64,000 nt of DNA from Patescibacteria group bacterium (GCA_041650715.1 JBAZKQ010000001.1:518945-582944), one strand, 5' to 3'. Counted from the stretch's first letter, positions 2,177 to 64,000 are shown. Notes: a model not told the origin generated them from the letters alone. Made by a program: numbers and translations.

Positions 2177-2179
2177 TAA

Positions 2180-2830
2180 TTATTTATTATAACGTTCGGT
2201 CAGAACTTTAACGACATTTTCCGTTAATAATAAATTCTTATAATTCAATAAATCAACTAAGTTGATATTTTCTAAATTAATAATTCTGACGCCGGTTAGA
2301 TTGCGGCCGGAATATTTGGCTTTTTCTTCGGTCGCTTCGTTAATTACTAAAATATTGCGTCTTTCGTTATTTAAAACTGTTTTTTCGACGGTAGTTAACA
2401 GGGTATTAAATTTCTTGGTTTTGAATTCAGGAAATTCTAAATTATCAATAATTACTAAAGAGTTGGTTGAGAATTTATCGGATAAAGCCATGAACAAAGC
2501 TTTCTGCTTCATTTTTTGGTTAATCTTTTTCTTAAAATTGCGATCTTTGGTCGGACCAAAAGTGACACCGCCGCCAATCCAAATCGGAGAACGGCTGGAA
2601 CCGGCACGAGCGCGTCCTGTTCCCTTTTGTTTCCAAGGTTTTTTACCGCCGCCGGAAACTTCACTGCGATCTTTGGTATTAGCTAAAACCTGACGGGCAT
2701 TAGCCATCTGCGCGATAACCGCCTGATGCAATAATTCATTATTGGCTTTAACCCCGAAAATCTTATCCGCTAACTCTAAATCCTTAACGGCTTCGACTGA
2801 CTGGTTATAAACTTTTATCTTTAATGACAT
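2180..2830 (-). CDS. rplD: 50S ribosomal protein L4
   Basis: 216 aa with SGGGKKPWKQKGTGRARAGS motif; operon position. Confidence 0.95.
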   Translation of the reverse strand: MSLKIKVYNQSVEAVKDLELADKIFGVKANNELLHQAVIAQMANARQVLANTKDRSEVSGGGKKPWKQKGTGRARAGSSRSPIWIGGGVTFGPTKDRNFKKKINQKMKQKALFMALSDKFSTNSLVIIDNLEFPEFKTKKFNTLLTTVEKTVLNNERRNILVINEATEEKAKYSGRNLTGVRIINLENINLVDLLNYKNLLLTENVVKVLTERYNK

Positions 2831-2855
2831 ATGATAATCAATTACTTATTACTTT

Positions 2856-3662: not shown

Positions 3663-3868
3663 ATTGGTCTACATTTTTTAAACAAAAAACTGGCTTAAAA
3701 CCAGCTTCAAAAAAAACTACAAAAATAACCCTACTCGTTATTTATTTGATTTATTTTTTGTGCGCTGATTTACCTCCTAGTTTTGGCTAACTTTCGCTTA
3801 AACACTTTCTTTATAAACAGAGTTATTTATTCGATTATTAGCCAACAATATATTACTTTGTAATACTA
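3663..3868 (-). promoter_or_regulatory. 206-nt non-coding spacer between rpsJ and rplC; candidate structured leader
   Basis: No ORF on either strand. Minus-strand elements: an inverted repeat TTGGCTAA...TTAGCCAA, an orphan CTAGGAGGT with no start codon after it, and a short hairpin GCTGG-ttttaag-CCAGT followed by TTTTT about 20 nt before the rplC ATG. Confidence 0.3.
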
Positions 3869-4204
3869 CTACATTTTAATTTCCACGTCAACCCCAGCCG
3901 GTAGGTTCAGATTAGTCAAATCCTCGATCGTTTTTGCGGTCGGGTCAATGATATCAATCATGCGCTTATGGATACGCATTTCATATTGGTCACGAGCATC
4001 TTTATGGACAAAAGTTGAACGATTAACCGTATATTTACGAATTTCTGTCGGCAGTGGAATCGGGCCAAAGAATTGGGCATCACTCCGTTCAATCGTTTCC
4101 ACGATAGTCTTGGTTGATTGATCAATTATTTTATGATCAAAAGCCTTGATCTTAATTCTGATCCTTTGCTTGAATTCGTTCGCTTCTTTTTTGTTTTCGG
4201 GCAT
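3869..4204 (-). CDS. rpsJ: 30S ribosomal protein S10
   Basis: 111 aa with [18 protein letters not shown]...[20 protein letters not shown], typical of S10. Confidence 0.97.
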
Positions 4205-4230
4205 AATTAAATTCTTAAATTAACACTACA

Positions 4231-4263
4231 GCCCCGTCCTTTTTAATTCGGAAAGAACGGGGC
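4231..4263 (-). promoter_or_regulatory. Stable stem-loop between tuf and rpsJ, with no U-tract
   Basis: GCCCCGT (4231..4237) pairs perfectly with ACGGGGC (4257..4263), plus 4 inner base pairs. No T-run on either side, so it is not a canonical terminator. Confidence 0.4.
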
Positions 4264-4274
4264 AAAGTATGAAC

Positions 4275-5465
4275 TTATTTCAAAATCTTAGTTACAACGC
4301 CGGCACCAACAGTGCGGCCGCCTTCACGGATTGTGAATTTTTGTTTATCTTCCAAAGCGATCGGAGCAATTAATTTAATGTTTAAATTAATTGTGTCGCC
4401 TGGCATAACCATTTCAGTTCCGGCTGGTAATGTAATATCGCCGGTAACATCAGTGGTTTTAAAGTAGAATTGTGGTTTATAGCCGTTGAAAAACGGTTTA
4501 TGACGACCACCTTCTTCTTTAGATAAGATATAAACTTCACCGCTGAATTCAGTGTGCGGAGTGATTGAACCCGGTTTGCATAAAACCTGGCCGCGTTCAA
4601 CTTCAGTTTTTTTAGTACCGCGGAGTAAGATACCCGCGTTATCGCCAGCCATACCTGAATCTAATTGTTTATTAAACATTTCGATACCGGTAACGGTGGT
4701 TTTCTTGGTGTCCATTAAACCGACGATTTCAACTTCATCGCCAATCTTAACGGAACCTCTTTCAATACGACCAGTAACAACAGTACCACGACCTTCAATT
4801 GAGAAGATATCTTCAATCGGCATTAAGTAAGGTTTATCAACATCGCGATTAGGTTCCGGGATGTAGTTGTCTAAAGCTTCCATTAATTTCATTAACGGTT
4901 CAGCGTCAGGACCAGTCGGGTTCTCTAAAGCCTTAAGGGCAGAACCACGAATAATCGGGGTAGTATCACCTGGGAATTCATATTTCTTTAATAAGTCGCG
5001 GATTTCTTCTTCGACGAGGTCGATTAATTCCTTATCTTCGACCATATCGCATTTGTTTAAGAAAACAACGATATACGGTACGCCTACCTGACGAGCCAAT
5101 AAGATGTGTTCTCTGGTCTGCGGCATAGGGCCATCAGTGGCAGCTACCACCAAGATAGCACCGTCCATTTGCGCGGCACCAGTGATCATGTTCTTAACAT
5201 AATCGGCATGGCCTGGGCAATCAACGTGCGCATAGTGGCGCTTGTCTGACTCATATTCAACGTGAGCAGTGGCAATAGTAATACCACGAGCTTTTTCTTC
5301 CGGAGCGGAGTCAATTTCGTTAACGCTCTTGTGGGATGCTTTCATGCCCTTAGCGGCAAAAACAGCCAACATCGCGGCGGTTAAAGTGGTTTTCCCGTGG
5401 TCAACGTGGCCAATAGTACCGACGTTAACATGGGGCTTAGTTCTTTCAAATTTTTCTACAGCCAT
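4275..5465 (-). CDS. tuf: Elongation factor Tu
   Basis: 396 aa with [18 protein letters not shown] and NKCD G-motifs; full-length EF-Tu. Confidence 0.99.
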
Positions 5466-5565
5466 GTTTTTGTTGTTAGGCCCCCGTTTTTCACAGGGTT
5501 TCTTTCCTATAAGGAAACCAGCCGAACTAAATTAATTATTTTTTATTATTAAAATTTCACTTACA

Positions 5566-5964
5566 TTACTCAATTTCCTGCGCCTTATCCTTGACCTGGG
5601 TAGGGATAGTCCAAGCCTTTTTCGGCTTGTCTTCCTCGGCCGGATAGGGGGAATTATCTCGATTTTTCCACAATGAGATTTCGCGATTTATTTTATCAGT
5701 TAAATCTTCTTCTGTCAAATTTTCCTTTTCTGGTGCTAAATCCAAATTTTCGGCTTTTATTTCAGTTTTTTCGGTCTCGCTGGGCTTTGCTTCCGGAGCT
5801 GTTTCTGGCACGGCTACCGCTCCTCCCTCCCCACTAAGCATTCCTTCATAACGGGCAAAATCCATGATCACATATGATTCGTTCGCTTGGGCATCAAAAA
5901 CGACTACCCGGTCGCCGGTTTTCTTGATCAAATTAAGGATTTTTTTTAATTGTTCAGGAAACAT
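5566..5964 (-). CDS. Hypothetical acidic protein inserted between fusA and tuf
   Basis: 132 aa. The ~45-aa N-terminal segment (LKKILNLIKKTGDRVVVFDAQANESYVIMDFARYEGM) is followed by a P/E/K-rich tail. I recognise no family. Confidence 0.55.
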   Translation of the reverse strand: MFPEQLKKILNLIKKTGDRVVVFDAQANESYVIMDFARYEGMLSGEGGAVAVPETAPEAKPSETEKTEIKAENLDLAPEKENLTEEDLTDKINREISLWKNRDNSPYPAEEDKPKKAWTIPTQVKDKAQEIE

Positions 5965-5982
5965 ATTTTTATTTAGCTTTTT

Positions 5983-8061
5983 TTATTTACCCTGCTTTTC
6001 TTTAATCGCTTCTAAAATATTTTTCGGTACTTCGGAATAATGAGAAAATTCCATAACATAATTGGCGCGACCCTGAGACATAGAACGTAAGGAAGTCGAG
6101 TAGCCGAACATTTCGGCGAGCGGGACTTTGGCTTTAACAACTTTTAGGTTAGCCCGGTCGGACATTTCTTCAATTTGACCGCGCTTGGAACTTAAGTCGC
6201 CAATAATGTTGCCCATATATTCTTCCGGAGTAGTCACTTCAACTTTCATAATCGGTTCAAGTAAAATCGCCCCGGCTTTTTGACAAGCATCTCTAAACGC
6301 GTGAATAGCCGCGAGTTTAAAGGCGATTTCCGAAGAGTCGACTTCATGATAGGAACCGTAGAATACGGCTGCTTTTACATCAACCATCGGGTAACCGGCC
6401 ACAGTACCACTGAGCACCGCTTCTTTGAAACCTTTTTCAATCGCCGGAATATATTCTTTCGGAATAACACCACCCTTAACTTCATCGGCAAATTCAATTC
6501 CCTTGCCCGATTCGAGCGGTTCAACCCGTAAGGAACAATGACCATATTGGCCGCGTCCGCCGGATTGCTTCGCATACTTATATTCCGCTTCAGCAATTTT
6601 AGTAATAGTTTCGCGATAGGATACCTGAGGATTACCGACGTTAGCTTCCACACCGAATTCACGGCGCATACGATCAACGATAATTTCCAAATGAAGCTCG
6701 CCCATACCGGAGATTAAAACTTGATTGGTTTCCGCATCAGTTTCTACGCGGAAGGTCGGATCTTCTTCGGCCAAACGCTGCAAGGCGACACCCATCTTTT
6801 CTTGGTCGGCCTTAGTCTTCGGTTCAACGGCAATCTTAATAACCGGTTCCGGGAAAGTAATAGATTCGAGTAATACTTCGTTATTTTCATCACAGAGCGT
6901 ATTGCCGGTGGTCGTATTCTTTAAACCGATAACGGCCGCAATATCACCTGCGTAAATTTCTTTAATTTCTTCACGGTGATTAGCATGCATACGCACTAAA
7001 CGACCGACTCTTTCCTTAGTTCCTTTAGAAGAATTAACGATATATGAGCCAGCGGTTAAAACGCCTTGATATACACGGACGAAACAAAGTTTACCGACAA
7101 AAGGATCAGTCGCAATTTTGAAAGCTAAGCCGACAAAAGGTTTCGAGTCGTCAGCGCGCAGCGGATATTTCTTCTCGCTATCGCGAACATCAGTCGAATC
7201 AATTTCCGGTACGTCTAAAGGAGACGGTAAATAATCATTAACCGCGTCGAGTACTAATTGCACGCCGATATTCTGAAGAGCAGTACCGCATAAAACCGGG
7301 TAAAGCGCATTGGCGATAACCCCTTTTCTGATAGCCGCTTTCAATTCTTCCAAACTGATTTCTTGACCGCTTAAATATTTTTCCATGGTCTGTTCATCAC
7401 ATTCCACGGCCTTTTCCACTAATTCATTATGATATTCTTCAACCTTCGCTTTCATGTCTTCCGGAATTTCGATTTCTTTGACATCGACGCCGTTAAACCC
7501 GGAGAAAGTAAAGGCTTTCTTTTCTAGAACATCAATCACGCCGGATAAATTACTTTCTGCGCCAATCGGGAGTTGCAGGGCAACCGCCTTCTGGTTTAAA
7601 CGCGTGCGGATAGAGTTTAAACTCATATAAAAATCCGCTCCCATTTTATCCATTTTATTTACAAAACAAAGGCGCGGTACTTGGTATTTATCGGCTTGGC
7701 GCCAAACTGTCTCAGATTGCGGCTCAACGCCCGCCTGACCGTCAAAAACAGCCACCGCACCGTCAAGAACACGCAAAGAGCGTTCTACCTCAACCGTAAA
7801 GTCAACGTGGCCTGGAGTATCGATAATATTGATTTTATTGTGTTTCCAAAAACAAGTCGTGGCAGCAGAAGTAATCGTAATCCCTCTTTCCTTCTCTTGT
7901 TCCATCCAATCCATTTCCGCAGCCCCTTCATGAACTTCGCCAATCTTGTGTTTTTTACCGGTATAAAACAAAACGCGCTCGGTAAAAGTAGTTTTGCCGG
8001 CGTCAATATGAGCCATGATTCCGATATTTCTGGTATTTTCTAGTGTATAGTCACGAGACAT
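5983..8061 (-). CDS. fusA: Elongation factor G
   Basis: 692 aa with [17 protein letters not shown] and NKMD motifs; str-operon position. Confidence 0.99.
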
Positions 8062-13200: not shown

Positions 13201-13261
13201 ACGATACTCAACTATAATTTGAGCATCGTCTTATTTAAACACGAGAAACTAATCTTGTCAA
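13201..13261 (-). promoter_or_regulatory. Candidate promoter plus 11-bp hairpin upstream of the orphan gene
   Basis: Minus strand reads TTGACA (13261..13256, overlapping the comEC TGA), 17 nt, TTAAAT (13238..13233). Then a hairpin ACGATGCTCAA-attatag-TTGAGTATCGT at 13229..13201. Confidence 0.4.
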
Positions 13262-14640
13262 TGCCGAAATCTGCGATATAGTAGGATTAATATGGCATAA
13301 TACCCCGCCCCCAAATACCAATTAAAGTGATTAATATTTACTGCCGCCCAGGTAGACGCAGCTAAAAGCGTAGAAACGAAGAAGATAAATTTTAATAATA
13401 AATACGCCGGGAAAAACCAAAACAAACTGAGGGTCGGAATTAAAGCGCTGAGAAATAGCGCGCCAATGAGCGCCGCTAAAAGCGGTGCAAAAGTCCAAAG
13501 CACGAGGACGTTCGCGAGCGGCGCAATCAGCGATAATTGCTTAAAATTAATAAGCGCGATCGGCAAAATTACGATTTGCGAAATTAGAGTTAAATTAATC
13601 GTATCTAAAATTGTTTTTAAAAATTTTTTGGTTTTTATTTTCAGCTTTCTTTTCTCTAAAAAGCGCTTCGTAATTCCCTCGCCAATCGGGTATAAATAGA
13701 TAATTCCGAGGAGCGCCATGAATGATAATTGAAAACCAATATCGGCCCGCAGAATTTTTGGATTAAAAATTAGCATAGCGGCGGCCGAAAAAACCAAAGC
13801 TTTTATGAGCGATCCAGAGCGCTGATAATACATGGCTAAAAAAGCGAGACCGCCCATAATCGCCGACCGTACTGCCGAGGCGGCCAAACCGGTAATGAGC
13901 GGATAAATTAATAAAAACCCAAAAATGATGAGGAGGGCGCGCCGACGCCGCACTCCGAGCGCCAAGAGAAAATTTATAATCATCGCGCTTAAAATCGTGA
14001 TGTGTGAGCCCGATATCGCAATCATATGGCTTAGGCCCACTCGCGAAAAAATCTGTAAATCTTCGCGCATGACTGTCCGGCGATAGCCGAGGAGCAGCGC
14101 ATTAGCGAGTCCGGCTTCCGGCTCCGGCAAATTTAAATCGATTAGATCCTTAAGTCGCCATTTAAATTTCATCAGAGATAGGTAAACATTTTGTGAACCG
14201 CTGAGCTCGCCAGTAATTGTGCTTATTTGGGGATAATACATCACCGAATAAATATCGTAGCGCGCGAGATAGCTTTCATAATCAAAACCGTCTATCTCGG
14301 GCGGAGCTTCAAGTGTTCCCGTTATTTTAATAAAATCGCCATAATCATAAATGGGATATAAATCAGTCGTAATAAGAACAAGACCCCCCGTTTTGCCAAG
14401 GGCGCATAGCGTTAAGCGCCGGCTTTTATAATCGGTATCCGCCTCCTCACAAACCCGTCCGGAAAACGATAAAGACTTGCCATTATAGAAAGAAATATCA
14501 CCTGAACCGGGCGGCGCCAAAAAGGCGTGCGGTTGAAAGCCCAAAATAAAAACACCCGCAATAAATAATATATTTATAATTAAAAATATTTTCGCTGGAG
14601 ATAAACGCCCAGCATAAAAAGCCTGTCTTAATTTGGACAT
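13258..14640 (-). CDS. comEC: ComEC/Rec2 family DNA internalisation channel protein
   Basis: 460 aa, polytopic, with GLSHMIAISGSHITIL competence-domain motif and an N-terminal OB-like segment after the first TM. Confidence 0.85.
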   Translation of the reverse strand: MSKLRQAFYAGRLSPAKIFLIINILFIAGVFILGFQPHAFLAPPGSGDISFYNGKSLSFSGRVCEEADTDYKSRRLTLCALGKTGGLVLITTDLYPIYDYGDFIKITGTLEAPPEIDGFDYESYLARYDIYSVMYYPQISTITGELSGSQNVYLSLMKFKWRLKDLIDLNLPEPEAGLANALLLGYRRTVMREDLQIFSRVGLSHMIAISGSHITILSAMIINFLLALGVRRRRALLIIFGFLLIYPLITGLAASAVRSAIMGGLAFLAMYYQRSGSLIKALVFSAAAMLIFNPKILRADIGFQLSFMALLGIIYLYPIGEGITKRFLEKRKLKIKTKKFLKTILDTINLTLISQIVILPIALINFKQLSLIAPLANVLVLWTFAPLLAALIGALFLSALIPTLSLFWFFPAYLLLKFIFFVSTLLAASTWAAVNINHFNWYLGAGYYAILILLYRRFRH

Positions 14641-49289: not shown

Positions 49290-49787
49290 ATGAAAAAAAT
49301 CATGATTTCCCTTTTAATTGCCTTTGCCGCTATCGCCATGTTTACTCCCCAAGCTTCCGCCGAAAATTCCGTAGTTATTAAAAACGGAGACACGCTTATT
49401 TGCTACACCGTCCATTATCCATATATTACTCCCTTAGAGGAACTGGAAATTGAGAGATTTAAAGACAGTCCCCTCCGCTGGCCAAAAAATATTCCGGTCA
49501 GCACAATGAAAACAAAAATGTATATCGGGATCAACGATAGCATTCTTAGGGCGCTCATGATTCCAAGCGATGTTTGGCATTTATTCAAGGAAAATAAACA
49601 TTATATTTTCGCTCCTAATGCCTACAACATGTTTTCTCTCTCGGAAAGCGATCTAAATAAAGCAGAAAATCGGATTTCCCAACTTGAAGGAAGAGAAAAT
49701 TTTATGTTTGTCATCATTATTATTCTTATACTCGCGGGCTCTTATGGTCGATCGCATTATATGAATAAAAATACAAATAAATCTTAG
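49290..49787 (+). CDS. Orphan secreted, C-terminally anchored protein
   Basis: 165 aa. Signal peptide ends ...TPQASA/EN; C-terminal TM helix FMFVIIIILILAGSYG plus a short polar tail. No family recognised. Confidence 0.6.
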   Translation: MKKIMISLLIAFAAIAMFTPQASAENSVVIKNGDTLICYTVHYPYITPLEELEIERFKDSPLRWPKNIPVSTMKTKMYIGINDSILRALMIPSDVWHLFKENKHYIFAPNAYNMFSLSESDLNKAENRISQLEGRENFMFVIIIILILAGSYGRSHYMNKNTNKS

Positions 49788-49899: not shown

Positions 49900-52800
49900 T
49901 TAAGACGGCGCCTTCTCTTCCCCTAATTGGTTCTCCTGTTTTATTAACCCCAATGAGAGCTTTACGTCATCAATCTTAATCTCTTTACTCACTAAAACTT
50001 CCGGCATGGCGTCCACGCAATTAATGTCCGCACTCAGCGTGTCTTTCATAATATCGGCTTTCTTATTTAAGAGAGCCGTTTTTAATTCTTCGCCGGCGCC
50101 GACCAGATAAATATTGGTTTCATCATTAATATTTAAATTCCCTTCTTTACGCAGCATATTAACGAATCGAATCAGTTCTCTCTTCAAGCCCTCTTCTTTT
50201 AATTCCGGAGTAATGAATGTGTCGAGCTCAAGTTCAATTTTATCTTCCGCACTCTCGATAAACTCAACTCCCGCGACATTCAATTCATCCTTAAGCAACT
50301 CAATATATTCCGGAGTGATTTCCGTTTTAACTTTAACCGTAATCTTCGCAAGCATCTGGCGAATCTTAATTCCTGCCTCATCGCGCTTCGCGAGACCGAG
50401 CTCGACGATTTTCCGCGTCAGCTCCATATCGGCCAGTAACTTAGTATAATCAGTCTCATCACTCTCCGGCCATTTTTCCAGATGGACCGACGCATTTTTA
50501 TCCTCAAAATTATAAGCACTCATTTTCTGCCAGAGATTTTCGGCAATGAAAGGCATAAAGGGCGCCATTAACTTCGCGAGTTCCGTTAAGACATAGCGCG
50601 TCGTCGCGAGGGCGTTATTCTTATCGGCCTCGTCGTCCGACTTAAAGCGATCACGGCTGCGGCGCAGATACCAAGTCGAAAGCTCGTCGATAAATTCCGG
50701 CAAGCGGCGCGCGGCCTCATAAATATGGTAAGTATTTAAATCAGTCGTGAGCCCCTTAACTAAGACTGAGAATTTCGCGAGAATCCAAAGATCCAAAACG
50801 TTTTGGCTCTCGGGTTTTTCCGCTTCGCTCTTCTCAGACGTCGCGTACATCTCATAGAATTTATAAACATTCCAGAGCAGCATGATATTTTTTCGGAAGA
50901 CATCTTTCACATCATCAAGATCATAGCGCTTCCCTTCGCCGGGCTGATTGATCGTAAACATATGCTGGCGCACGGCGTCTACACCATATTGTGAAATCAC
51001 TTCCCAAGGGCTAATGATATTGCCTTTTGATTTCGACATCTTCTTGCCGAATTTATCATTGATATGACCCAAACAAATTACATTTTTATAGGGCGCACCT
51101 TTGCCGAGAGTAGTCGAAATCGCGAGCAAGGTATAAAACCAACCTCGGGTTTGATCAATCGCTTCGCAAATAAACTCCGCCGGGAATTGCTCGTTCTTGT
51201 CGATTAAGTCGCGATTCTCAAAAGGATAATGATGCTGCGCATAAGGCATAGCGCCGGAGTCGAACCAGCAATCAAAAACTTCTTTGACGCGCTTCATTTT
51301 CCCGCCGCAGTCGGCGCAGGTCATTTCATAAGCATCTATTTCCGGTCGATGAATATCTGATTTAATTGTTACTTTCTGTCCGCTGAGCTCGGCGAGTTCT
51401 TCAACACTGCCGATCACGCGGTGCTTTTGGCATTTCTCGCATTCCCAAATCGGGAGCGGTGTCCCCCAGTAACGTTCGCGCGAAATCGCCCAATCTTTAA
51501 CATTACCAAGCCATTCCCCGAAGCGGCCTTCTTTAATATGTTCCGGAATCCAATTAATCGTTTTATTATTTTCGAGTAGCTCCTCTTTCAAGGTGCTCAT
51601 CGCGATAAACCAGGAGTCTTTCGCATAATACAAAAGGGGCGTATCGCAGCGCCAACAAAAAGGATAATCGTGCTCGTAAATTTCTTCTTTAAATAATATT
51701 TTATTCTCCTTTAAATAATCTAAAATAATTTTTTCCGTGCCTGCGCTTTTAACGAATTTGGCGTTCAGGCCGTAAGCCGATAAATCATTCGTGAAGAGTC
51801 CGCCTTCGTCAACAGTATGCACTTTCGGCAAGCCGACGGCTTCGCCTAAATCATAGTCGTCTTCCCCGTACATCACCGCCGTATGAACGACGCCGGTGCC
51901 GTCGGAAGTGGTGACGAAATTGGCCGGCACGACGCGATAAGCCTTCTTACCGGATTTAATTTCCTCGGCACGAATTGCGGGAATTTCGAATAAGGGTTCA
52001 TATTCTAAATCCAATAAATCAGAACCTTTGGATTCGGAGATTAAATTTACAACCGGCGGAATTTCACCAGCCGCAATAGATCTTACTCCTGAAAATTCCT
52101 TTCCAATTCCTTCGATCGTATTTTCAAAAATACTTTTTGCTAAAATATAGTTAGCACCGACTTCGCCAACTTGTCTATATACTTTGACGTATTCAATATC
52201 CTTCCCGACCGCGAGCGCGACATTACCCGGCAAAGTCCAAGGCGTGGTTGTCCAGGCGAGAATAAAGTCGCCGGGCTTAACGAAATCGTTGCCGACCGTT
52301 ACTTTGAATTTTAAATAAACGGAATTATCTTTCGTTAATTTATAGCCTTGCGCGACTTCGTGGCTCGAGAGTGCGGTGCCGCAACGCGGACAATGCGGGA
52401 CGACTTTATGCCCCTTATAGACCAAGCTTTTCTTATCCATTTCTTTTAATATCCACCACAAACTTTCAATATAAGTATTATCATAAGTGATATAAGGATG
52501 TTCCATATCAACCCAGAAAGCGATGCGGCGCGTTAATTTCTGCCATTCATCCAAATAAACCCAGACACTCTCCTTACATTTTTCATTAAATTCTTTAATC
52601 CCATATTTCTCAATGTCCGGTTTACCGGAAATGCCCAATTGCTTTTCGACTTGAAGCTCAACGGGCAGACCGTGCGTATCCCAGCCGGCCTTACGCTCAA
52701 CCCGAAAACCATTCATGGTTTTAAAGCGCGGCATGACGTCTTTAAAAGCGCGCGCTAAAACGTGGTGGATACCCGGCATGCCGTTAGCGGTCGGCGGTCC

Positions 52801-52980
52801 TTCAAAAAAGACGAAGCTCCCATTAGGCGCTTTCTTATCGATTGATTTTTTAAAAACATCCGCCTGCTCCCAAAAATCCAAAATCGTTTCTTCCATGGCG
52901 ACGAAGGCGTTAGCCGGCGCCGGCTGATTAGCGGAGGTAGTCGGGGGGGTAAAAGCTTTTTTTTCTTTTTTATCTGACAT
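49900..52980 (-). CDS. ileS: Isoleucyl-tRNA synthetase, type 2 (long form)
   Basis: 1026 aa with PPTANGMPGIHHVLARAFKD (HIGH) and KMSKSKGN; the CP1 editing insertion is present. Confidence 0.95.
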   Translation of the reverse strand: MSDKKEKKAFTPPTTSANQPAPANAFVAMEETILDFWEQADVFKKSIDKKAPNGSFVFFEGPPTANGMPGIHHVLARAFKDVMPRFKTMNGFRVERKAGWDTHGLPVELQVEKQLGISGKPDIEKYGIKEFNEKCKESVWVYLDEWQKLTRRIAFWVDMEHPYITYDNTYIESLWWILKEMDKKSLVYKGHKVVPHCPRCGTALSSHEVAQGYKLTKDNSVYLKFKVTVGNDFVKPGDFILAWTTTPWTLPGNVALAVGKDIEYVKVYRQVGEVGANYILAKSIFENTIEGIGKEFSGVRSIAAGEIPPVVNLISESKGSDLLDLEYEPLFEIPAIRAEEIKSGKKAYRVVPANFVTTSDGTGVVHTAVMYGEDDYDLGEAVGLPKVHTVDEGGLFTNDLSAYGLNAKFVKSAGTEKIILDYLKENKILFKEEIYEHDYPFCWRCDTPLLYYAKDSWFIAMSTLKEELLENNKTINWIPEHIKEGRFGEWLGNVKDWAISRERYWGTPLPIWECEKCQKHRVIGSVEELAELSGQKVTIKSDIHRPEIDAYEMTCADCGGKMKRVKEVFDCWFDSGAMPYAQHHYPFENRDLIDKNEQFPAEFICEAIDQTRGWFYTLLAISTTLGKGAPYKNVICLGHINDKFGKKMSKSKGNIISPWEVISQYGVDAVRQHMFTINQPGEGKRYDLDDVKDVFRKNIMLLWNVYKFYEMYATSEKSEAEKPESQNVLDLWILAKFSVLVKGLTTDLNTYHIYEAARRLPEFIDELSTWYLRRSRDRFKSDDEADKNNALATTRYVLTELAKLMAPFMPFIAENLWQKMSAYNFEDKNASVHLEKWPESDETDYTKLLADMELTRKIVELGLAKRDEAGIKIRQMLAKITVKVKTEITPEYIELLKDELNVAGVEFIESAEDKIELELDTFITPELKEEGLKRELIRFVNMLRKEGNLNINDETNIYLVGAGEELKTALLNKKADIMKDTLSADINCVDAMPEVLVSKEIKIDDVKLSLGLIKQENQLGEEKAPS

Positions 52981-52991
52981 ATTTTATTTAA

Positions 52992-53294
52992 TTATTTATT
53001 TTCACTTTCTATAGCGGAAAAATCTCCCTCGCTTTCCGGTAGCTCGCTACTTTCCTTTTCTTCAAGCGCCTTAATTTCGTCTCTAAGCCCCTTAATACTT
53101 ACCATGTTTACGGTGTGTTTATTCGCTAATGCCTCTTTTTCCGCAATTTCAATCTTTTTATAGAGCTCGGCGATCATATGATCAGCCACAGTTTTGCGCG
53201 GCGTTTTTTCTTTTTCTAAAGGCTTCGCCATACCGCTCGCTTCAAAATCCTTAATCAGGTCTGATTGATAATCGGGCATTTTATTGAAAGACAT
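52992..53294 (-). CDS. Hypothetical helical protein
   Basis: 100 aa, K/E-rich with predicted coiled helices; packed tightly between the NDT-like gene and ileS. Confidence 0.5.
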   Translation of the reverse strand: MSFNKMPDYQSDLIKDFEASGMAKPLEKEKTPRKTVADHMIAELYKKIEIAEKEALANKHTVNMVSIKGLRDEIKALEEKESSELPESEGDFSAIESENK

Positions 53295-53314
53295 ATATTT
53301 ATTTTATTTTAAAA

Positions 53315-53707
53315 TTATTTAAGGTAATTTAATAAATCTTCCGGCGTTTTCACCACACCGCTAAATAGTACTTGGCGGCAAATTTCCGGATCACTCGCGT
53401 CGAGAACGTAAATCGGCTTATTCATTGCCACCGCATAGCCAATTTCCATGCTAACGCTTACGCCGGAATAGCCCTCTTCATTATAAACATAAACGACATC
53501 CGCCATTCTCATTTTATAGAAATGGTCATGCGTTAAACCGAGGGCGACAAATTTCTTATCAAAATCTTTAATTTCGTCCCAGTTACCGCCCGAAGCGCGA
53601 TATAAATGCGGTTCAAAAACTACTACGCCTAAGGCTTTTAGCTTTTTCGCAAATTCTCTCATTTGCGGGGCAAAACGATTACTCCCGCATAAAGCGACTG
53701 ATTTCAT
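53315..53707 (-). CDS. Nucleoside 2-deoxyribosyltransferase-like (flavodoxin-fold) protein
   Basis: Start chosen at ATG 53707 (MKSVALCGSNRF...), because the longer ORF would overlap the upstream gene. The family pattern is an N-terminal hhhhGS segment and a C-terminal GVSVSMEIGYAVAMNKPIY with a conserved Glu. Confidence 0.5.
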   Translation of the reverse strand: MKSVALCGSNRFAPQMREFAKKLKALGVVVFEPHLYRASGGNWDEIKDFDKKFVALGLTHDHFYKMRMADVVYVYNEEGYSGVSVSMEIGYAVAMNKPIYVLDASDPEICRQVLFSGVVKTPEDLLNYLK

Positions 53708-53727
53708 AACTTTATATTTAAGAATTT

Positions 53728-53994
53728 TTATTCCAAAGACATGACGACAATTCCCTTTTCGACGAGCTCTTCTTTCGGCCAATATAAATCGTTAATATTA
53801 AAAATATGCGCGTAACTAATTTTCTTTTCCAAGGTTCGTCCGGTATATTCTTTCTTATTTTGATCCCACTCCTCTAATATTATCGTATCGCCGGCCGCGA
53901 CCGCGAAATCATTAAGGCGTAAATCATATTTCTTTCTGCCGGAAGCTAAATCGTCATAAAACCCTAACCAAATTTTTTTGTGAATTGTTGCCAT
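53728..53994 (-). CDS. DUF3850 / ASCH-superfamily (PUA-like fold) protein
   Basis: 88 aa. IHKKIWLGFYDDLASGRKKYDLRLNDFAVAAGDTIILEEWD..EYTGR matches the DUF3850 pattern (HxLK..p.yF..v.sG.KtfE.R.nDR.f.vGD.l.L.E...yTGR). Confidence 0.65.
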   Translation of the reverse strand: MATIHKKIWLGFYDDLASGRKKYDLRLNDFAVAAGDTIILEEWDQNKKEYTGRTLEKKISYAHIFNINDLYWPKEELVEKGIVVMSLE

Positions 53995-54003
53995 ATGTTT
54001 ATT

Positions 54004-54096
54004 TTAACTTTTTTCCTCCCATAAAGATTTATCAGCCAGCACCTGCCAGTTACGGGCTTTAAGATGCGTGTAAACTTTATTTTCCAAATCCTTCAT
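54004..54096 (-). pseudogene. 30-codon ORF, possibly the N-terminal remnant of a MazG-like nucleotide pyrophosphohydrolase
   Basis: My translation is MKDLENKVYTHLKARNWQVLADKSLWEEKS, then a stop. It starts 5 nt after the ASCH gene stop and ends 9 nt before the DUF3850 ATG. LxxKVxxxxKxRxW resembles MazG-like N-termini, but the EExxE catalytic helix is absent. Confidence 0.3.
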
Positions 54097-54101
54097 ATTT
54101 T

Positions 54102-54425
54102 TTATAAAAGTTTAAAGTCAATCATTTTTATAACAGTATCCCAATTAACTTTTTCACCATAAAAAGTTTTATAATTATCAAGCATATCTTGTCTGCTTTC
54201 AAATTTTTCATGACCAATAAAATCGACTTCACCAACGTCGGCTAATTTTTTCTCTCTTACTTTTATAATTTCCGCTTCAGCAAATTTTTCTTTTGATTCC
54301 CAAACTAATAACGCTACCTTATCGCCAACGCTTAAATCTTTATCATCAAAAATTCTCCAAGTTGCAGTTTTGGTTCCAGAGATAATCTCGTCCGATAGGC
54401 TTTGCCTGAACTTAAGAGTTTTCAT
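54102..54425 (-). CDS. ASCH domain protein
   Basis: Start chosen at ATG 54425 (MKTLKFRQSLSDEIISGTKTATWRIFDD..VGDKVALL), 4 nt after the secA stop. It shows the G.KT.T.R ASCH signature. This gene is AT-rich and CpG-poor. Confidence 0.75.
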   Translation of the reverse strand: MKTLKFRQSLSDEIISGTKTATWRIFDDKDLSVGDKVALLVWESKEKFAEAEIIKVREKKLADVGEVDFIGHEKFESRQDMLDNYKTFYGEKVNWDTVIKMIDFKLL

Positions 54426-54429
54426 ATTC

Positions 54430-57204
54430 CTATTTCCCATGGCATTGTTTATATTTTTTACCGCTCCCACAAGGGCACGGATCGTTGCGCCCGACTTTCT
54501 CGCCGCCTTCCCCCTTCGTTTTTTCATGCACTAAATCAACCGTGTTGCGGGCCTCGGCCTGCTTATGCATTTCCTTGGCGGCGCCAGTAAATTCTAAATT
54601 AGTCGCGGGCTGGTCGGCAAATAATTTAATTTCCGGCATATTAGCCATCGATAAAGCATCGGCCGTTTTATAAATCGCATAAACGACATTTTTATTGATA
54701 AGCGCATTTAATTCCTGATACATGCGCCACGCTTCCTTCTTATACTCAACAAGCGGATCGCGTTGGCCGTAGCCGCGCAAACCGATACCCCGGCGCAGAT
54801 AATCAACCGTTTCCAAATGCTCAACCCACATCTCGTCAATAGAGCGAATTAAAATTCCCTTTTCAATTTCCGTGAAGGCAATACCGACTGAACTAAATTT
54901 ATCGGCTAAAGACGCATAGACTGTGTCCGCTTCGGTAATCAAATAATTTATCATCGCTTCGCGAATATCGTCCTTAGTCTTATCGCTCTTCACAATCTCG
55001 TCTAATTTATTTTTAATTTCTTCAGAAGGCGTCCAAATCGTGCGCAAGGTTTCGTCAATCTCTTTAGTGTTCCATTCCGCTTTTTCATCGCTCGCGGTAT
55101 GAAAAATTACGAGCGCCCGAATTTCCTCGGCGACCATCTTACTAATAATGGCACTCAGAGTTTTATTTTTGGCGTTCGTCTCAATTTCCGGAATGACTTC
55201 CTCGTCGTCTTCGGTCTTTGCGACCGGTGTCTCGACTAATATTTCTTTGCCCTCAGCGATTTCTAAAATTTCTCGACGACGGCGATAAATCGCGGTCCGG
55301 TGCTTATTAATAACATCATCGTATTCGACTAAATGCTTTCTCGTATCAAAATTATTACCTTCAACTTTCTTCTGAGCGGATTCAATTGATTTCGAAATCA
55401 TCTTATTTTCAATCGGCATATCGGCCGGCACATTCAAAGTTTGCATTAAGCCTTTCATGCGGTCGCCGCCAAAAATACGCATCAAATCATCATCCGTTGA
55501 AACATAAAACTGCGAGGAACCCGGATCGCCCTGACGACCGGCGCGGCCTCTTAACTGATTATCAATCCGGCGCGACTCGTGACGCTCGGTACCGACAACG
55601 TGTAGGCCACCAAGCGCTCTAATTTCCGCTTGTTCGGCTTCAAGCGGCGGATTACCGCCTAAAATAATATCAACGCCACGACCGGCCATATTAGTCGCCA
55701 AAGTAATGGCGCCCTTGCGTCCGGCTTGTGCAATAATTTCCGCTTCCCGTTGATGATTCTTCGCGTTCAGCATTTGGGGGCGAAGTCCTTCACGTTCCAT
55801 TAAAGCCGCAAAGATTTCATTTTTTTCGATAGAAATCGTGCCGATTAAAACCGGCTGGCCCTTGTCGCTGCGCGCTTTAACGTCTTTAATGACAGCGTTA
55901 AACTTGTCCATTTCCGTACGATAAATTAAGTCGTTTAAATCCTTGCGGACATTCGGCTTATTGGTCGGAATAACGATAGTATCCAAATTATATATCTTAT
56001 GAAATTCCTCCGCTTCGGTTGCGGCCGTTCCGGTCATACCGGATAATTTTTTATATAAGCGGAATAAATTTTGGAAAGTAATGGTCGCCATGGTTTGCGA
56101 TTCTTTCTGAACTTTTACGCCCTCCTTGGCTTCAATCGCCTGGTGCAAACCCTCACTATAACGGCGGCCCGGCATTAAGCGCCCGGTAAATTCATCAACA
56201 ATAATAATCTCATCATCTTTAACGACATAATCTTTATCGCGCGTAAACAAAGTCTCGGCTTTTAAAGCCTGGTCGGCATGGTGGACTTCCTTAACACCGC
56301 CTTCAACATAAATATTGCCGACGCCTAAAAATTTCTCAAGCTTATTGATGCCGGCTTCGGTATAAGTCGCGGCGCGCATTTTTTCATCGACGTTATAGTC
56401 TTCATTTTCAACTAAAGGTTTAACAAATTGCGCAAATTTAAAATACTTATCGGTCGATTCTTCGGCCGGTGCGCTAATAATAAGCGGGGTGCGTGCTTCA
56501 TCGATTAAAATCGAGTCGATTTCATCGACAATCGCGTAATGGAGCGGGCGCTGGACAGCCTGATTAAGAGTATAAATCATGTTATCGCGCAGATAGTCGA
56601 AGCCGAATTCATTATTCGTGCCATAAGTCACGTCGCAATTATAAGCGTCAACGCGCGGAATTTTCTTAAAATGTTTTAGGCGTTCATCGTACTGCTCTTC
56701 GTCGGTATATTCCGGATCATAGACAAAAGCATTTTCATGAACAATCACGCCGGTCGTGAGTCCCAGCGCGTAAAATACCGGCGCCATCCAACCGGCACCC
56801 AAACGCGCTAAATAATCGTTAACTGTAATCAAGTGCACGCCCTTACCTTCAAGTGCATTTAAGTATAGCGGGAGTGTCGCCACTAAAGTTTTACCTTCAC
56901 CGGTTTTCATTTCCGCAATCTGGCCGCGATGTAAAACGATGCCGCCGACAAGCTGGACATCAAAATGCCGCTGGTTTAAAATCCGGCGGGCGGCTTCACG
57001 CATGGTCGCATAGGCTTCGGGCAGAAGTTCATCAAGAGTTTCGCCTTTTGTCAGGCGTTCTTTATAGATACTTGTTTTTGCTTTGAGCTCTTCGTCTGAG
57101 AGATTCTTGAGTTCCGGCTCAAAACCAGCAATCTTTTCGATTGTCGGTTGCATGGCTTTAACTATCTTTTCATTGGCGTCGCCGAAGAGGCTGAGAATAT
57201 TCAT
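54430..57204 (-). CDS. secA: Preprotein translocase ATPase SecA
   Basis: Carries MKTGEGKTLVATLP (Walker A) and DEIDSILIDEARTPLIIS motifs. The C-terminal zinc motif is CPCGSGKKYKQCHG. The likely start is ATG 57204 (MNILSLFG...); the track ORF extends to 57267. Confidence 0.97.
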   Translation of the reverse strand: MNILSLFGDANEKIVKAMQPTIEKIAGFEPELKNLSDEELKAKTSIYKERLTKGETLDELLPEAYATMREAARRILNQRHFDVQLVGGIVLHRGQIAEMKTGEGKTLVATLPLYLNALEGKGVHLITVNDYLARLGAGWMAPVFYALGLTTGVIVHENAFVYDPEYTDEEQYDERLKHFKKIPRVDAYNCDVTYGTNNEFGFDYLRDNMIYTLNQAVQRPLHYAIVDEIDSILIDEARTPLIISAPAEESTDKYFKFAQFVKPLVENEDYNVDEKMRAATYTEAGINKLEKFLGVGNIYVEGGVKEVHHADQALKAETLFTRDKDYVVKDDEIIIVDEFTGRLMPGRRYSEGLHQAIEAKEGVKVQKESQTMATITFQNLFRLYKKLSGMTGTAATEAEEFHKIYNLDTIVIPTNKPNVRKDLNDLIYRTEMDKFNAVIKDVKARSDKGQPVLIGTISIEKNEIFAALMEREGLRPQMLNAKNHQREAEIIAQAGRKGAITLATNMAGRGVDIILGGNPPLEAEQAEIRALGGLHVVGTERHESRRIDNQLRGRAGRQGDPGSSQFYVSTDDDLMRIFGGDRMKGLMQTLNVPADMPIENKMISKSIESAQKKVEGNNFDTRKHLVEYDDVINKHRTAIYRRRREILEIAEGKEILVETPVAKTEDDEEVIPEIETNAKNKTLSAIISKMVAEEIRALVIFHTASDEKAEWNTKEIDETLRTIWTPSEEIKNKLDEIVKSDKTKDDIREAMINYLITEADTVYASLADKFSSVGIAFTEIEKGILIRSIDEMWVEHLETVDYLRRGIGLRGYGQRDPLVEYKKEAWRMYQELNALINKNVVYAIYKTADALSMANMPEIKLFADQPATNLEFTGAAKEMHKQAEARNTVDLVHEKTKGEGGEKVGRNDPCPCGSGKKYKQCHGK

Positions 57205-57325
57205 ATTGATTTTGGCTAATTTTGTGTAAAAACAAACAGATCTAAAGTCCGTCTTTAGCTCTAACATTAGTATAATACGTTCTGTGGATAAAATAAATAT
57301 TGACGAATGTGTAAATAAATTGCTT

Positions 57326-61630: not shown

Positions 61631-64000
61631 TTACTCGGCGTCAGAAATCTTGGTTAAATCACTATTCGTTATCCCTAAACCGCGCTGGCGCATAATGTTA
61701 TACGCATCGTCCGGACGGCCCAAATAATATAGTTCTAAATTTACCGGATCAAAATAATACGCACGCCCGGAATCATTTGGTTTTAGGAGTATGCGTCCGG
61801 CGAGCTGGCTCCAACCCTGCGGGTTGTTTTCAATCGCTGTAAAATCAGAATTTGAAACGCCCAGCGCGAAACGACGCATCAAATTATAGGCGTCTTCAGG
61901 ACGACCTAAACTATAACGACGGCCGTCACTCGGATTAACATACCAGGCTTGACCCTTGTCCTGAACCTGAAGGAGAATTCGACCCTTGAGCCGCTTGGTT
62001 AAACTGGCGTTAATACCGGAGCCGGCGGGACTGATAGTCGAACCGGAGTTTGTATTGCCGCTCCCATTACTCGCAGTGCCCGACGCGATATTAGAATCCG
62101 CGCCTGACAGAGAAAATGATTTTGTATTGGTAATTAAATATTTCGAATTAAGGATAACATTAACGGTATAACTTGAACCGTTCTTAACATAGAAAGCTTG
62201 GCCGAATAATTGGTTGCCCGCACCGGCGTAGTAAGCCAAGTATTGTCCGGCCGCGAGCGCCAAAGAGGCTGAGTTATTAGTTAACTTTAAGGTCGTTAGC
62301 TGCTTATCACGCACATAAGTCCCCTTGCTTCCGGCGAGCGAATAAAGAATTATCGTGGGGCTGGTGTTTACGCCTTTGCCTTGCGGATCGCTTAAATTAA
62401 AATTGATTAAACTCGTCGTAAACTTCTGATAAGTATTATTCCCGTTTATCGCGACATTCCAAAAAATATCATTGCGATTTAAAGCATCAAGCGTCACTAA
62501 GGCGTAATTACCGGCCGGATATTCGAATTGAAATTCCCCGCTCGTATCGGTTTTAAGGGTTAATAACCTGTCGCCCAAAACATAAACGCCGTTACTGACC
62601 TTCTGCTCATAGAGATAAAAAACTTTAGAGGCCAGGATTCGCCCGCCCGCTTCTTGGAATTGGCCGCTTAAACCGCTGGCCACGGATTCAAACTCAAGAT
62701 CTTTTTCCAAATTAACTCTAATATTATAAAAGCTTTCCAGGTTGCCATTAGCATCTTTCAGGGTTATGGCGTAAATTCCCGTTTGCGTGCCATAGGTATT
62801 ATAGGGAGAAACATAGACGAGTGCAGTGCCGCCCGCGTCAGTCTGGAGATTGGCGATTAATTTTTTAGTATCAATAATCGGATTATTATCGGCATCGTAA
62901 GTCTGGAGGTAAAGAGAAAAATTATAGTTACGCTTTAATTCTCCCTTTGTATCGCGTAAGACAATTTTCAGGGCCGGAATATTTTTCGTGATCGTCCGGT
63001 CGTAGCCGCAGACGAAGCGAATGGCGTCATAGAACCAAAACTCTCCGAGGTCGGATTTTTTATCATAGACCTTTAGAGCATATTTTTTATCAGGAGTCGG
63101 CTTAAAACTAACTACCGCTTGGCCGTATTCATTCGTTGTGCCACTAAGGACCTTAGTCCCGACAATAGGCAAACCGTTAAAATTTTGGTTTTGCTCGTAA
63201 ATTTCAAATTTCAAGCCTCGCGCGCTTTGCCCGGAAAAATCACTTAAAGACACATAAACATTAGAGGCGGTCGTGCAAGCTACCGAACTCAGGTTTGCGT
63301 TTGAACCTTGATCTGGGCTGGTATACCCAGGAGTATTGCTGCCGTCAGTCAGATTTAGCAAAAAATCACTCGTGTTGCCGCTCGACACATAGGTAGACCA
63401 AAAATATTTATAGTCAGAGCCGACTTTAACCCGTAAGGCATATAGCCCAGGAGAAACCTCCATTGAACCGTAACCATTACCTGCAATCACAAAAGAGCCA
63501 ACCTTAGTGTCCAATAAATTTTCATTATTAATGCCACTTTTTTGTTTATAAACTTCTACGGTCGCGCCCACTGTTGAAGCACCCGAATCATATTTTAATC
63601 TAACCCGTAGAATGCTTAAAGAATTTGAATAATTATTAATACTACCGTCACTAACATAAATATTATAAACTTCGGATTTGATATTATTATGATTAAACTC
63701 AAAAACATAATAATCGCTGGCCCCGCTGGTAATCCCACGCAAACTTCCTTGGGGTAAATATATTTTTACTTGTCCGGAAGTGCCAGAATTAAAACTACCC
63801 ATCAACTCATTTTTTACATTTTCCAAATTACCGTTAGCGTCATGAAGCTGGGTATAAACACTAAAGTTGCTATTAGCTAAAATCCCGCCATCCGCCTCAT
63901 GCAGCGACACTAAAAGCCCGCTCAAAGTCTTATTGATAACAGCCGTTTCTCCACAATCAAGGGTGTTGTCAAAAAACCAAAAACTGGCAGAATCCTTGGC
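61631..64000 (-). CDS. Large repeat-built surface protein; 5' end beyond the window
   Basis: The frame stays open upstream of the track start (which is a TTG) through to position 64000. It contains at least 6 tandem ~90-100-aa beta-sandwich-like modules with a CarboxypepD_reg/Cna-B-like pattern. An S/G/N-rich linker follows, then two ~55-aa C-terminal repeats of the form GRILL...AWY..P....Y.LGRP.DAYN.MR..(G/A)LG(I/V)(S/T)NSD. Confidence 0.75.
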   Translation of the reverse strand, partial: AKDSASFWFFDNTLDCGETAVINKTLSGLLVSLHEADGGILANSNFSVYTQLHDANGNLENVKNELMGSFNSGTSGQVKIYLPQGSLRGITSGASDYYVFEFNHNNIKSEVYNIYVSDGSINNYSNSLSILRVRLKYDSGASTVGATVEVYKQKSGINNENLLDTKVGSFVIAGNGYGSMEVSPGLYALRVKVGSDYKYFWSTYVSSGNTSDFLLNLTDGSNTPGYTSPDQGSNANLSSVACTTASNVYVSLSDFSGQSARGLKFEIYEQNQNFNGLPIVGTKVLSGTTNEYGQAVVSFKPTPDKKYALKVYDKKSDLGEFWFYDAIRFVCGYDRTITKNIPALKIVLRDTKGELKRNYNFSLYLQTYDADNNPIIDTKKLIANLQTDAGGTALVYVSPYNTYGTQTGIYAITLKDANGNLESFYNIRVNLEKDLEFESVASGLSGQFQEAGGRILASKVFYLYEQKVSNGVYVLGDRLLTLKTDTSGEFQFEYPAGNYALVTLDALNRNDIFWNVAINGNNTYQKFTTSLINFNLSDPQGKGVNTSPTIILYSLAGSKGTYVRDKQLTTLKLTNNSASLALAAGQYLAYYAGAGNQLFGQAFYVKNGSSYTVNVILNSKYLITNTKSFSLSGADSNIASGTASNGSGNTNSGSTISPAGSGINASLTKRLKGRILLQVQDKGQAWYVNPSDGRRYSLGRPEDAYNLMRRFALGVSNSDFTAIENNPQGWSQLAGRILLKPNDSGRAYYFDPVNLELYYLGRPDDAYNIMRQRGLGITNSDLTKISDAE

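Follow-up and report, generated by a model that had tools for sequence, protein, structure and literature searches.

The 64,000-nucleotide (nt) stretch of DNA analyzed here (JBAZKQ010000001.1:518945-582944; hereafter the window) comes from a Patescibacteria metagenome-assembled genome (MAG), Falkowbacteria-like as judged from its closest relatives, and carries five small open reading frames (ORFs) between secA and ileS. We interpret this interval as a loosely coupled pocket of nucleotide salvage and sanitation, in which a variable slot is anchored by an enzyme resembling nucleoside 2-deoxyribosyltransferases (NDTs) and DNPH1 and in this genome also holds two predicted ASCH-superfamily amidohydrolases; we rate the chance that this reading is correct as about even. 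Its firm part consists of the family and fold membership of the encoded proteins, the conservation of their motifs, and the statistics of gene neighborhoods in related loci. The ORFs and the two borders are listed below, with all window coordinates counted from the first letter of the stretch and protein lengths in amino acids (aa).

54102-54425, minus strand: ASCH protein, 107 aa, Pfam PF04266
54004-54096, minus strand: 30-codon ORF, 30 aa, MKDLENKVYTHLKARNWQVLADKSLWEEKS
53728-53994, minus strand: DUF3850 protein, 88 aa, Pfam PF12961
53315-53707, minus strand: NDT-like protein, 130 aa, of a Patescibacteria-wide subfamily in the NDT/DNPH1 superfamily
52992-53294, minus strand: orphan, 100 aa, charged
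54430-57267, minus strand: secA, upstream border of the variable slot, stop at 54430, Pfam SecA domains
49900-52980, minus strand: ileS, downstream border of the slot, start at 52980, Pfam tRNA-synt_1/Anticodon_1

The ORF list placed all five small ORFs on the minus strand between secA and ileS with spacers of 5-20 nt, and the source assembly's own gene caller recovered the same five, in agreement with the first-pass annotation of this DNA, which had described five tightly tiled genes. A promoter and terminator scan found no minus-strand terminator-like site within the cluster; co-transcription of the slot genes with their neighbors is therefore plausible, and we infer that it probably takes place. 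The promoter and terminator counts themselves equaled the shuffle expectation and were uninformative.

A scan of one genome per species yielded 157 relatives of the NDT-like protein, and 80 loci were retrieved (designated by L numbers), nearly all of them from Patescibacteria by title or synteny. Conservation of the cluster was assessed in 81 loci by phmmer, hidden Markov model (HMM), and jackhmmer scans. The NDT-like gene lay between secA and ileS in approximately 20 Falkowbacteria-like loci and was the only constant occupant of an interval that ranged from 1.45 kb in the window to 5.4 kb among the related loci. An ASCH gene of the type of Escherichia coli YqfB accompanied it in 7 of these approximately 20 loci, and DUF3850 was found in three other loci, namely L004 and the distant L068, where it lay directly upstream of the NDT-like gene, and L007, where it lay beyond ileS. 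The complete five-gene set occurred in this genome only. A conserved five-gene operon was thus rejected, since only the NDT-like gene was constant across the 81 loci, and the earlier view of the five genes as a defined co-located system did not survive; a discrete, new, and fixed five-gene system is not supported. Several of the syntenic loci (L002, L005, L009, L017, L022, and others) came from records titled "MAG TPA_asm: uncultured Gammaproteobacteria"; their NDT-like proteins were 72-83% identical to the Falkowbacteria-type protein, and these taxonomic labels look wrong.

The variable genes of the slot were clustered and then scanned with Pfam. They included 17 Nudix copies, together with an HD/YfbR-like 5'-deoxynucleotidase, two MazG proteins, Maf, NTPase_I-T (ITPase/XTPase-like), a cytidine/dCMP-type deaminase, an inorganic pyrophosphatase, and CYTH. 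Divergent ASCH genes were located directly upstream of the NDT-like gene in L002 and L008, and the other slot genes encoded DUF1653, Bro-N, a UVR-motif protein, a 23S rRNA intervening-sequence protein (IVP)-like protein, a P-loop kinase, and orphans. Neighbor statistics, obtained from our own gene calls and from HMMs built on the 81 loci, are raw counts that ignore kinship among the loci. By these counts, Nudix genes made up 20 of the 155 genes adjacent to the NDT-like gene, compared with 12 of 463 at a gene rank of at least 4 (Fisher p = 4e-6), and an NDT paralog was similarly concentrated next to it (10/155 adjacent versus 1/463 at a rank of at least 4; Fisher p = 7e-6). PUA-like genes, belonging to at least four sequence families, numbered 7/155 adjacent and 6/463 at a rank of at least 4 (Fisher p = 0.023). 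NUDIX (13), CYTH (5), and NDT (5) also led the Pfam matches among 112 immediate neighbors in non-Falkowbacteria loci.

The Nudix protein encoded beside the NDT-like gene was a close orthologue of MTH1/NUDT1 (E = 1e-53 against vertebrate MTH1 structures), and shared approximately 60% identity with the zebrafish and human proteins across 137 aa; in many Patescibacteria, its gene directly follows that of the NDT-like protein (e.g., L018:6389-6868, L010:6395-6868, and L069:6395-6868). The presence of such a vertebrate-like MTH1 in bacteria of the candidate phyla radiation (CPR) suggests either horizontal transfer or unusually strong conservation. Fusions of the NDT-like protein with its paralog were found at L074:1895-2755 and L075:4899-5762 (286 aa, Gribaldobacteria), and protein P0272 (401 aa) combined two NDT-like domains with MazG; these fusions suggest that the two paralogs work together as a heterodimer with a functional tie to an NTP pyrophosphohydrolase. 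The fusions in L074 and L075 were also considered as NDT-ASCH fusions, which Pfam and translation rejected in favor of a tandem fusion of NDT-like protein and paralog. A jackhmmer search seeded with the divergent L002 ASCH protein strayed into NDT-family sequences. The genes of L068 were arranged as ribonucleotide reductase (RNR) small subunit, DUF3850, NDT-like gene, paralog, and Nudix-Nudix.

These neighborhoods bear on the possibility that the genes are not functionally coupled at all, and that the gap between secA and ileS is a permissive insertion site with turnover of unrelated genes, whose common theme in the window is coincidental. The slot content differed in nearly every relative and included genes unrelated to nucleotides, the five-gene set was confined to one genome, and the ASCH gene was compositionally foreign, all of which would be expected of such a site. 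However, nucleotide-hydrolase families were dominant in the slot, at levels far above their frequency in the genome, the linkage of the NDT-like gene to Nudix and to the paralog held in distant Patescibacteria and at other genome positions, and the fusions joined the NDT-like protein to MazG and to the paralog. We therefore consider an entirely coincidental assembly unlikely.

The anchor of the slot, the NDT-like protein, had 496 homologous clusters, mostly 60-88% identical and 130 aa long; the cluster representatives numbered 13 at E ≤ 1e-30, 230 at E ≤ 1e-10, and 5003 at E ≤ 1e-3. A precomputed PF05014 match was present in most of the close homologues. The AlphaFold2 model, built from a 22-sequence alignment, had a predicted local distance difference test (pLDDT) score of 89.6 and adopted the flavodoxin-like NDT fold, and Foldseek matched it to YtoQ, 7m5h, several NDTs, and DNPH1 with a probability of 1.00 and template modeling (TM) scores of 0.55-0.66. 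When the profile was compared with PDB sequences, the Chroococcidiopsis NDT (CtNDT) was matched at E = 0.01, with E88 of the window protein placed on the catalytic Glu88. The residues invariant among the 22 family members included C7, S9, D70, N76, Y80, G82, S84, E88, K97, and R111, and G8 within the loop C7-G8-S9-x-R11 was nearly invariant, whereas the GG that would follow this loop was absent.

The alignment of the NDT-like protein with human DNPH1 by hhalign, for which the DNPH1 sequence was verified against PDB, gave E = 0.0011 and 32% identity over 94 columns, albeit with a probability of only 20%. It matched C7-G8-S9-x-R11 to C26-G27-S28-I29-R30 of DNPH1, D70 to Asp80, E88 (in the context SMEIGYA) to Glu104, and Ala5 (Val in most relatives) to Tyr24; equivalents of DNPH1 Ser98 and Ser128 were not clearly conserved. 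In DNPH1, the backbone NH groups of Ile29, Arg30, and Gly31 together with Ser98 bind the 5'-phosphate, and the 3'-OH is bound by the Gly27 NH. The nucleophile is proposed to be Glu104, with Asp80 as the acid/base; Tyr24 tunes Glu104, and replacing the equivalent Tyr with Phe in rat DNPH1 lowered kcat/KM by 280-fold (PMC10483697). The family thus retains two hallmark residues out of three, along with a motif resembling the phosphate loop, but not the Tyr. The first-pass annotation had recognized a nucleoside 2-deoxyribosyltransferase-like protein by the SMEIGYA context of its Glu, and this assignment stood with respect to the fold and the aligned catalytic Glu, although the protein fell short of the Pfam threshold and lacked the catalytic Tyr.

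A genuine nucleoside 2-deoxyribosyltransferase is a serious alternative for this enzyme. By exchanging bases among deoxynucleosides, it would let a nucleotide-auxotrophic symbiont balance the deoxynucleoside pools derived from scavenged DNA, with the ASCH proteins feeding in de-acylated deoxycytidines. NDTs provided the best sequence-level PDB matches (E = 0.01), PF05014 was the best Pfam family, and the fold fits NDTs as well as it fits DNPH1. In addition, family members and DUF3850 occur in deoxynucleotide surroundings (RNR, tmk, and thyA) in L068 and L085, and the window encodes a ComEC DNA-uptake protein. In contrast, the CGSxR loop aligned with the 5'-phosphate loop of DNPH1 and not with the YxAG-type motif of NDTs, the catalytic Tyr of NDTs was missing, and the closest partners (MTH1-like Nudix, the MazG fusion, and the HD 5'-nucleotidase) make or use monophosphates and not nucleosides. 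Deoxyribosyl transfer seems to us a rather improbable activity for the family, yet one to be taken seriously.

Both PUA-like proteins scored above their Pfam cut-offs. The ASCH protein matched PF04266 over residues 4-105 with 39.8 bits, above the Pfam gathering cut-off (GA) of 21.2, which bore out the first-pass domain call. Its start was placed at MKTLKF, giving 107 aa, and this start was kept among the orthologues; the source gene caller began the ORF at an ATG farther upstream, which makes 112 aa. The octapeptide G17-T-K19-T-A-T22-W-R24 was of the YqfB (Thr) type, GxKxxTxR, and BLASTP placed GTKTATWR opposite GRKTITIR of E. coli YqfB (E = 1e-4); the K, T, and R were invariant across five orthologues. 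A phmmer search of PDB with the single ASCH sequence did not recover an ASCH structure. The octapeptide G-x-K-x-x-(T or E)-x-R holds the catalytic Lys, Thr/Glu, and Arg of ASCH enzymes (PMC6972931; bioRxiv 10.64898/2026.02.27.708502; bioRxiv 10.64898/2026.08.01.741249). These residues, which are Lys21/Thr24/Arg26 in YqfB (PMC6972931), are catalytically essential in YqfB, TthASCH, and TRIP4 (PMC6972931; bioRxiv 10.64898/2026.02.27.708502), and the Lys and Glu of the octapeptide are essential in EOLA1 (bioRxiv 10.64898/2026.02.27.708502), which has a role in the salvage of free N4-acetylcytidine (ac4C) (bioRxiv 10.64898/2026.08.01.741249). At 28% identity, the equivalents of YqfB His70/Glu74/Tyr89 in the window protein were ambiguous: a MAFFT alignment, unreliable at this level of identity, placed His70 opposite Phe75, and an invariant GHE (H72/E73) was located three residues upstream. 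From the motif, we regard the ASCH protein as a predicted N4-acyl-cytidine/cytosine amidohydrolase.

The DUF3850 protein scored 57.7 bits against PF12961 (GA 22.9), and its AlphaFold2 model (pLDDT 87) was a minimal ASCH/PUA-like beta-barrel, so that its earlier description as an ASCH/PUA-like DUF3850 protein was confirmed by profile and model alike. Foldseek ranked 3iuw first (E = 1e-6, TM 0.74-0.81), and further matches were PH0355, the YqfB-ac4C complex 9kyh, ZmASCH, and TthASCH. The motif G19-R-K21-K-Y-D24-L-R26 represented an acidic, "GKER-type" K-x-x-[E/D]-x-R variant; among 14 homologues, K21 and R26 were invariant and position 24 was D or E. Replacement of Glu by Asp at the acidic position is tolerated in EOLA1 and partly in TthASCH (bioRxiv 10.64898/2026.02.27.708502). 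Judging from the modeled barrel and this motif, the protein is a candidate N4-acyl-cytidine/cytosine amidohydrolase; among the papers found, none reported an assay of a DUF3850 protein.

A DUF3850 orthologue from Staskawiczbacteria (55% identity, on many contigs) was encoded between tmk and CYTH/thyA/folA, with dCMP deaminase, HAD hydrolase, and dNMP kinase genes upstream. In L085-L088, at approximately 2000-7600, these genes form a compact dTTP-synthesis cluster that encloses DUF3850 and CYTH and comprises dCMP deaminase, HAD, dNMP kinase, thymidylate kinase, DUF3850, a 117-aa gene, CYTH, thymidylate synthase, and dihydrofolate reductase (DHFR).

The first-pass annotation had proposed a theme of modified nucleoside or nucleotide handling or salvage, and this theme gained support from the PUA-like octapeptides, the Asp/Glu pair of the NDT-like protein, the house-cleaning neighbors in relatives, and the DUF3850 orthologue in the dTTP cluster. 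In the mechanism that we favor, the slot would collect small stand-alone enzymes that salvage or sanitize nucleosides and nucleotides. The NDT-like anchor would split (deoxy)nucleoside 5'-monophosphates at their N-glycosidic bond in the manner of DNPH1, via a covalent Glu88 intermediate and with Asp70 as the acid/base, so that (deoxy)ribose 5-phosphate and the free base are released. An MTH1-like Nudix protein or MazG, enzymes that convert abnormal (deoxy)nucleoside triphosphates, (d)NTPs, to the monophosphates, (d)NMPs, would carry out the step before it in most relatives. In this genome, the YqfB-type ASCH protein and the minimal DUF3850 protein would strip N4-acyl groups (e.g., that of ac4C) from scavenged cytidine or cytosine derivatives, and the deacylated cytidines could then re-enter the salvage pool. 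These enzymes would represent loosely coupled pool-cleaning steps and not an obligate complex. The substrates, the choice between hydrolysis and base exchange, and the coupling between the steps, like co-transcription, are the parts that we infer.

Several observations weigh against this mechanism. The PF05014 score of the NDT-like protein was 28.3 bits against a GA of 28.8, i.e., 0.5 bit short, and R11 of the putative phosphate loop was variable in the family. No Tyr occurred in the first 11 columns of the 22-member alignment, where the beta-1 catalytic Tyr (Tyr7 of NDT and Tyr24 of DNPH1) would be expected; Ala or Val stood in its place, and the NDT-like chemistry may therefore differ. The ASCH protein scored only 25.6 bits against the NCBIfam ac4C amidohydrolase equivalog NF003443 (cut-off 93), and MAFFT placed YqfB Glu74 opposite Gln79 of the window protein, a position occupied by Glu in five orthologues, in an alignment that is uncertain at 28% identity. 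Locus-derived HMMs found no Nudix, HD, MazG, or paralog gene in the 64-kb window, and the window's own slot lacked a Nudix, MazG, or HD partner. Three of the four other contexts of DUF3850 orthologues showed no link to nucleotide metabolism. The disregard of kinship in the neighbor counts belongs to the same side of the balance.

A broader proposal extends this reading to the phylum. The family may be a DNPH1-related, Patescibacteria-wide N-glycosidase that lacks the Tyr, often forms a heterodimer or a fusion with a paralog, and makes up a two-step pathway with a vertebrate-like MTH1 Nudix protein or MazG, leading from damaged or modified (d)NTPs to (d)NMPs and further to the base plus (deoxy)ribose 5-phosphate, with ASCH/DUF3850 proteins extending it to N4-acylated cytidines taken from the host in some lineages. 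We put this forward tentatively, with a clearly lower probability than the local reading. If it is true, the pathway would both sanitize the pool and recycle the sugar phosphate where nucleotides cannot be made.

The PUA-like genes could instead serve polymers, as erasers of tRNA ac4C or readers of modified bases in RNA or DNA, or the cluster could be what is left of a modification or anti-modification module of phage origin, as the first-pass annotation had also suggested. In a 2026 preprint, each of the 19 ASCH proteins tested was able to remove ac4C from tRNA. Prokaryotic members of the TRIP4-like ASCH clade are linked to restriction-modification and base-modification systems (bioRxiv 10.64898/2026.08.01.741249). 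DUF3850 is frequent in phages, where it occurs alone or as a fusion with ParB-CTPase domains, and the window ASCH and DUF3850 proteins both had PHROG matches, the latter to PHROG 986 at E = 1e-14. The anomalous composition of the ASCH gene points in the same direction: its GC content of 31.2% was the lowest of the 66 window genes (mean 43.3%, z = -4.1), and its GC content at third codon positions (GC3) was 24% (z = -4.4). Of the earlier description of this gene as AT-rich and CpG-poor, the former held and the latter did not, as the CpG observed/expected ratio was a normal 1.30 (z = -0.9). Composition was borderline for the DUF3850 gene (z = -2.0) and ordinary for the NDT-like and 100-aa genes. 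The ASCH orthologues were somewhat AT-rich relative to their own loci and 65-72% identical to the window ASCH protein, similar to the divergence of the NDT-like proteins (72-74%). The ASCH gene is compositionally foreign, and the data fit its acquisition from a low-GC relative, short of proof. Together with Gln79, its lowest GC content could mean either a recent acquisition or a weakened enzyme.

Other findings oppose a polymer-directed or phage-derived role. Neither the ORF list nor Pfam showed a methyltransferase, nuclease, or integrase gene between secA and ileS, or any further gene for modification or defense, and no mobile-element genes were found in this interval of the window. A TmcA-like acetyltransferase was not found among ten window ORFs scanned, the largest included, and the neighbors in relatives were mononucleotide enzymes. 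PADLOC returned only a 15-bit TIR-like match, and a defense system was rejected on this negative result; the NDT-like family was absent from 2.9 million viral contigs (IMG/VR), and a phage origin of the NDT-like gene was likewise rejected. The notion of a phage-derived or anti-modification relic is weakly supported: the ASCH and DUF3850 proteins have phage relatives and the ASCH gene looks recently acquired, whereas the anchor has no viral counterpart in these contigs and PADLOC offers nothing meaningful. We judge a polymer-directed (tRNA) or phage-relic role to be the least likely of the explanations considered, well below the pool-cleaning one. With respect to mobile DNA, the slots of L002, L005, L006, L008, and L023, as well as L012:4275-4871, contained Bro-N domain proteins, which resemble phage antirepressors, and a four-helix-bundle protein of the 23S rRNA-IVP type, which hints at mobile DNA passing through the slot.

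The 30-codon ORF had been described as a MazG-like remnant, a candidate that we rejected, since library scans, a MazG HMM from the related loci, and blastp-short all failed to find similarity. The ORF had no match in Pfam (E ≤ 1; PF03819 included), NCBIfam, PHROGs, or PADLOC, scored -0.7 bits against the MazG HMM, recovered only itself by blastp-short, and had no homologue in the 81 loci. It ends in ...WEEKS and lacks the EExxE metal motif of MazG. Its coding status is doubtful, and it is probably not a functional gene. The 100-aa protein, helical according to the first-pass annotation, showed no significant match in Pfam, NCBIfam, PHROGs, or PADLOC and had only three homologues (57-82% identity) among 5.8e9 proteins; the gene occupied the same position only in L002-L004, the three closest relatives. 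It is a lineage-restricted orphan, i.e., a lineage-specific add-on to the slot.

The slot is embedded in a dense minus-strand array of housekeeping genes, including those for elongation factor G (EF-G), alanyl- and prolyl-tRNA synthetases (AlaRS and ProRS), a Mur ligase, ComEC, RseP, hibernation-promoting factor (HPF), secA, and ileS. The source contig, ena:ERZ27247363:k141_1088855, spans 758 kb and bears NCBI locus tags of the form WC467_029xx. The ComEC-type competence (DNA uptake) protein, encoded at 13258-14640 on the minus strand, bears on nucleotide scavenging. Just downstream of ileS, a plus-strand ORF (49290-49787) encodes a 165-aa product whose N-terminus is hydrophobic; it had no Pfam match and was conserved at the corresponding place in L002 and L003. 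A 764-aa ORF at 61631-63925 (minus strand) had no Pfam match at E ≤ 1e-5, and tRNA and Rfam scans of the window returned nothing.

Patescibacteria are symbionts of extremely small size that are auxotrophic for nucleotides and rely on breakdown products of nucleic acids, which they scavenge. To our knowledge, there is no established account of how they avoid the incorporation of damaged or modified bases. An NDT-like enzyme tied to an MTH1-like Nudix protein, with ASCH-type deacylases in some lineages, would be a bacterial counterpart of human MTH1/DNPH1/EOLA1. The region thereby supplies candidate enzymes and a first functional hypothesis for stand-alone DUF3850. Among the papers found, none had as its subject the Patescibacteria NDT-like subfamily, its linkage to MTH1-like Nudix, or the function of stand-alone DUF3850. 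The value of these results is incremental, consisting of an annotation for approximately 500 unnamed proteins and a testable pathway.

ASCH amidohydrolases, DUF3850, NDT, DNPH1, and MTH1 are all known families, and the three enzymes predicted in the slot are members or variants of such families. The NDT-like protein has the fold of human DNPH1/rat Rcl (2'-deoxynucleoside 5'-phosphate N-hydrolase), and the C-G-S-x-R loop, the Asp, and the nucleophilic Glu align, but Ala or Val stands in place of Tyr24, and the GG of the phosphate loop is not clearly conserved. The parallel extends to the setting, as DNPH1 sanitizes the nucleotide pool alongside MTH1 and the bacterial NDT-like family is linked to an MTH1 orthologue. 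NDTs (PF05014; Lactobacillus and Chroococcidiopsis) were the best Pfam and PDB sequence matches, and the Glu within xxEhGxA and the upstream Asp are kept; however, the window protein falls below the Pfam cut-off, lacks the catalytic Tyr, and has a DNPH1-like N-terminal loop. The top structural matches, Bacillus subtilis YtoQ (PDB 8of6) and Enterococcus faecalis 7m5h, had TM scores of 0.59-0.66, whereas their identity was only approximately 18-20% and the YtoQ families scored only 12-13 bits. For YtoQ, no function was named in any title or abstract among the papers found, so that this match adds no mechanistic information.

For the PUA-like proteins, E. coli YqfB (PDB 1te7, 9kyf, and 9kyh) resembles the window ASCH protein in being a stand-alone ASCH domain of approximately 105 aa with an octapeptide of the same type, although the two are only 28% identical, over the N-terminal half. 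The window DUF3850 protein shares the fold of the E. faecalis "activating signal cointegrator" 3iuw and the K-x-x-acid-x-R motif of the TRIP4/EOLA1/TthASCH "GKER" clade, but carries Asp instead of Glu and is shorter (88 aa); it is stand-alone, whereas fusion with a ParB-CTPase domain is frequent among its relatives in phages.

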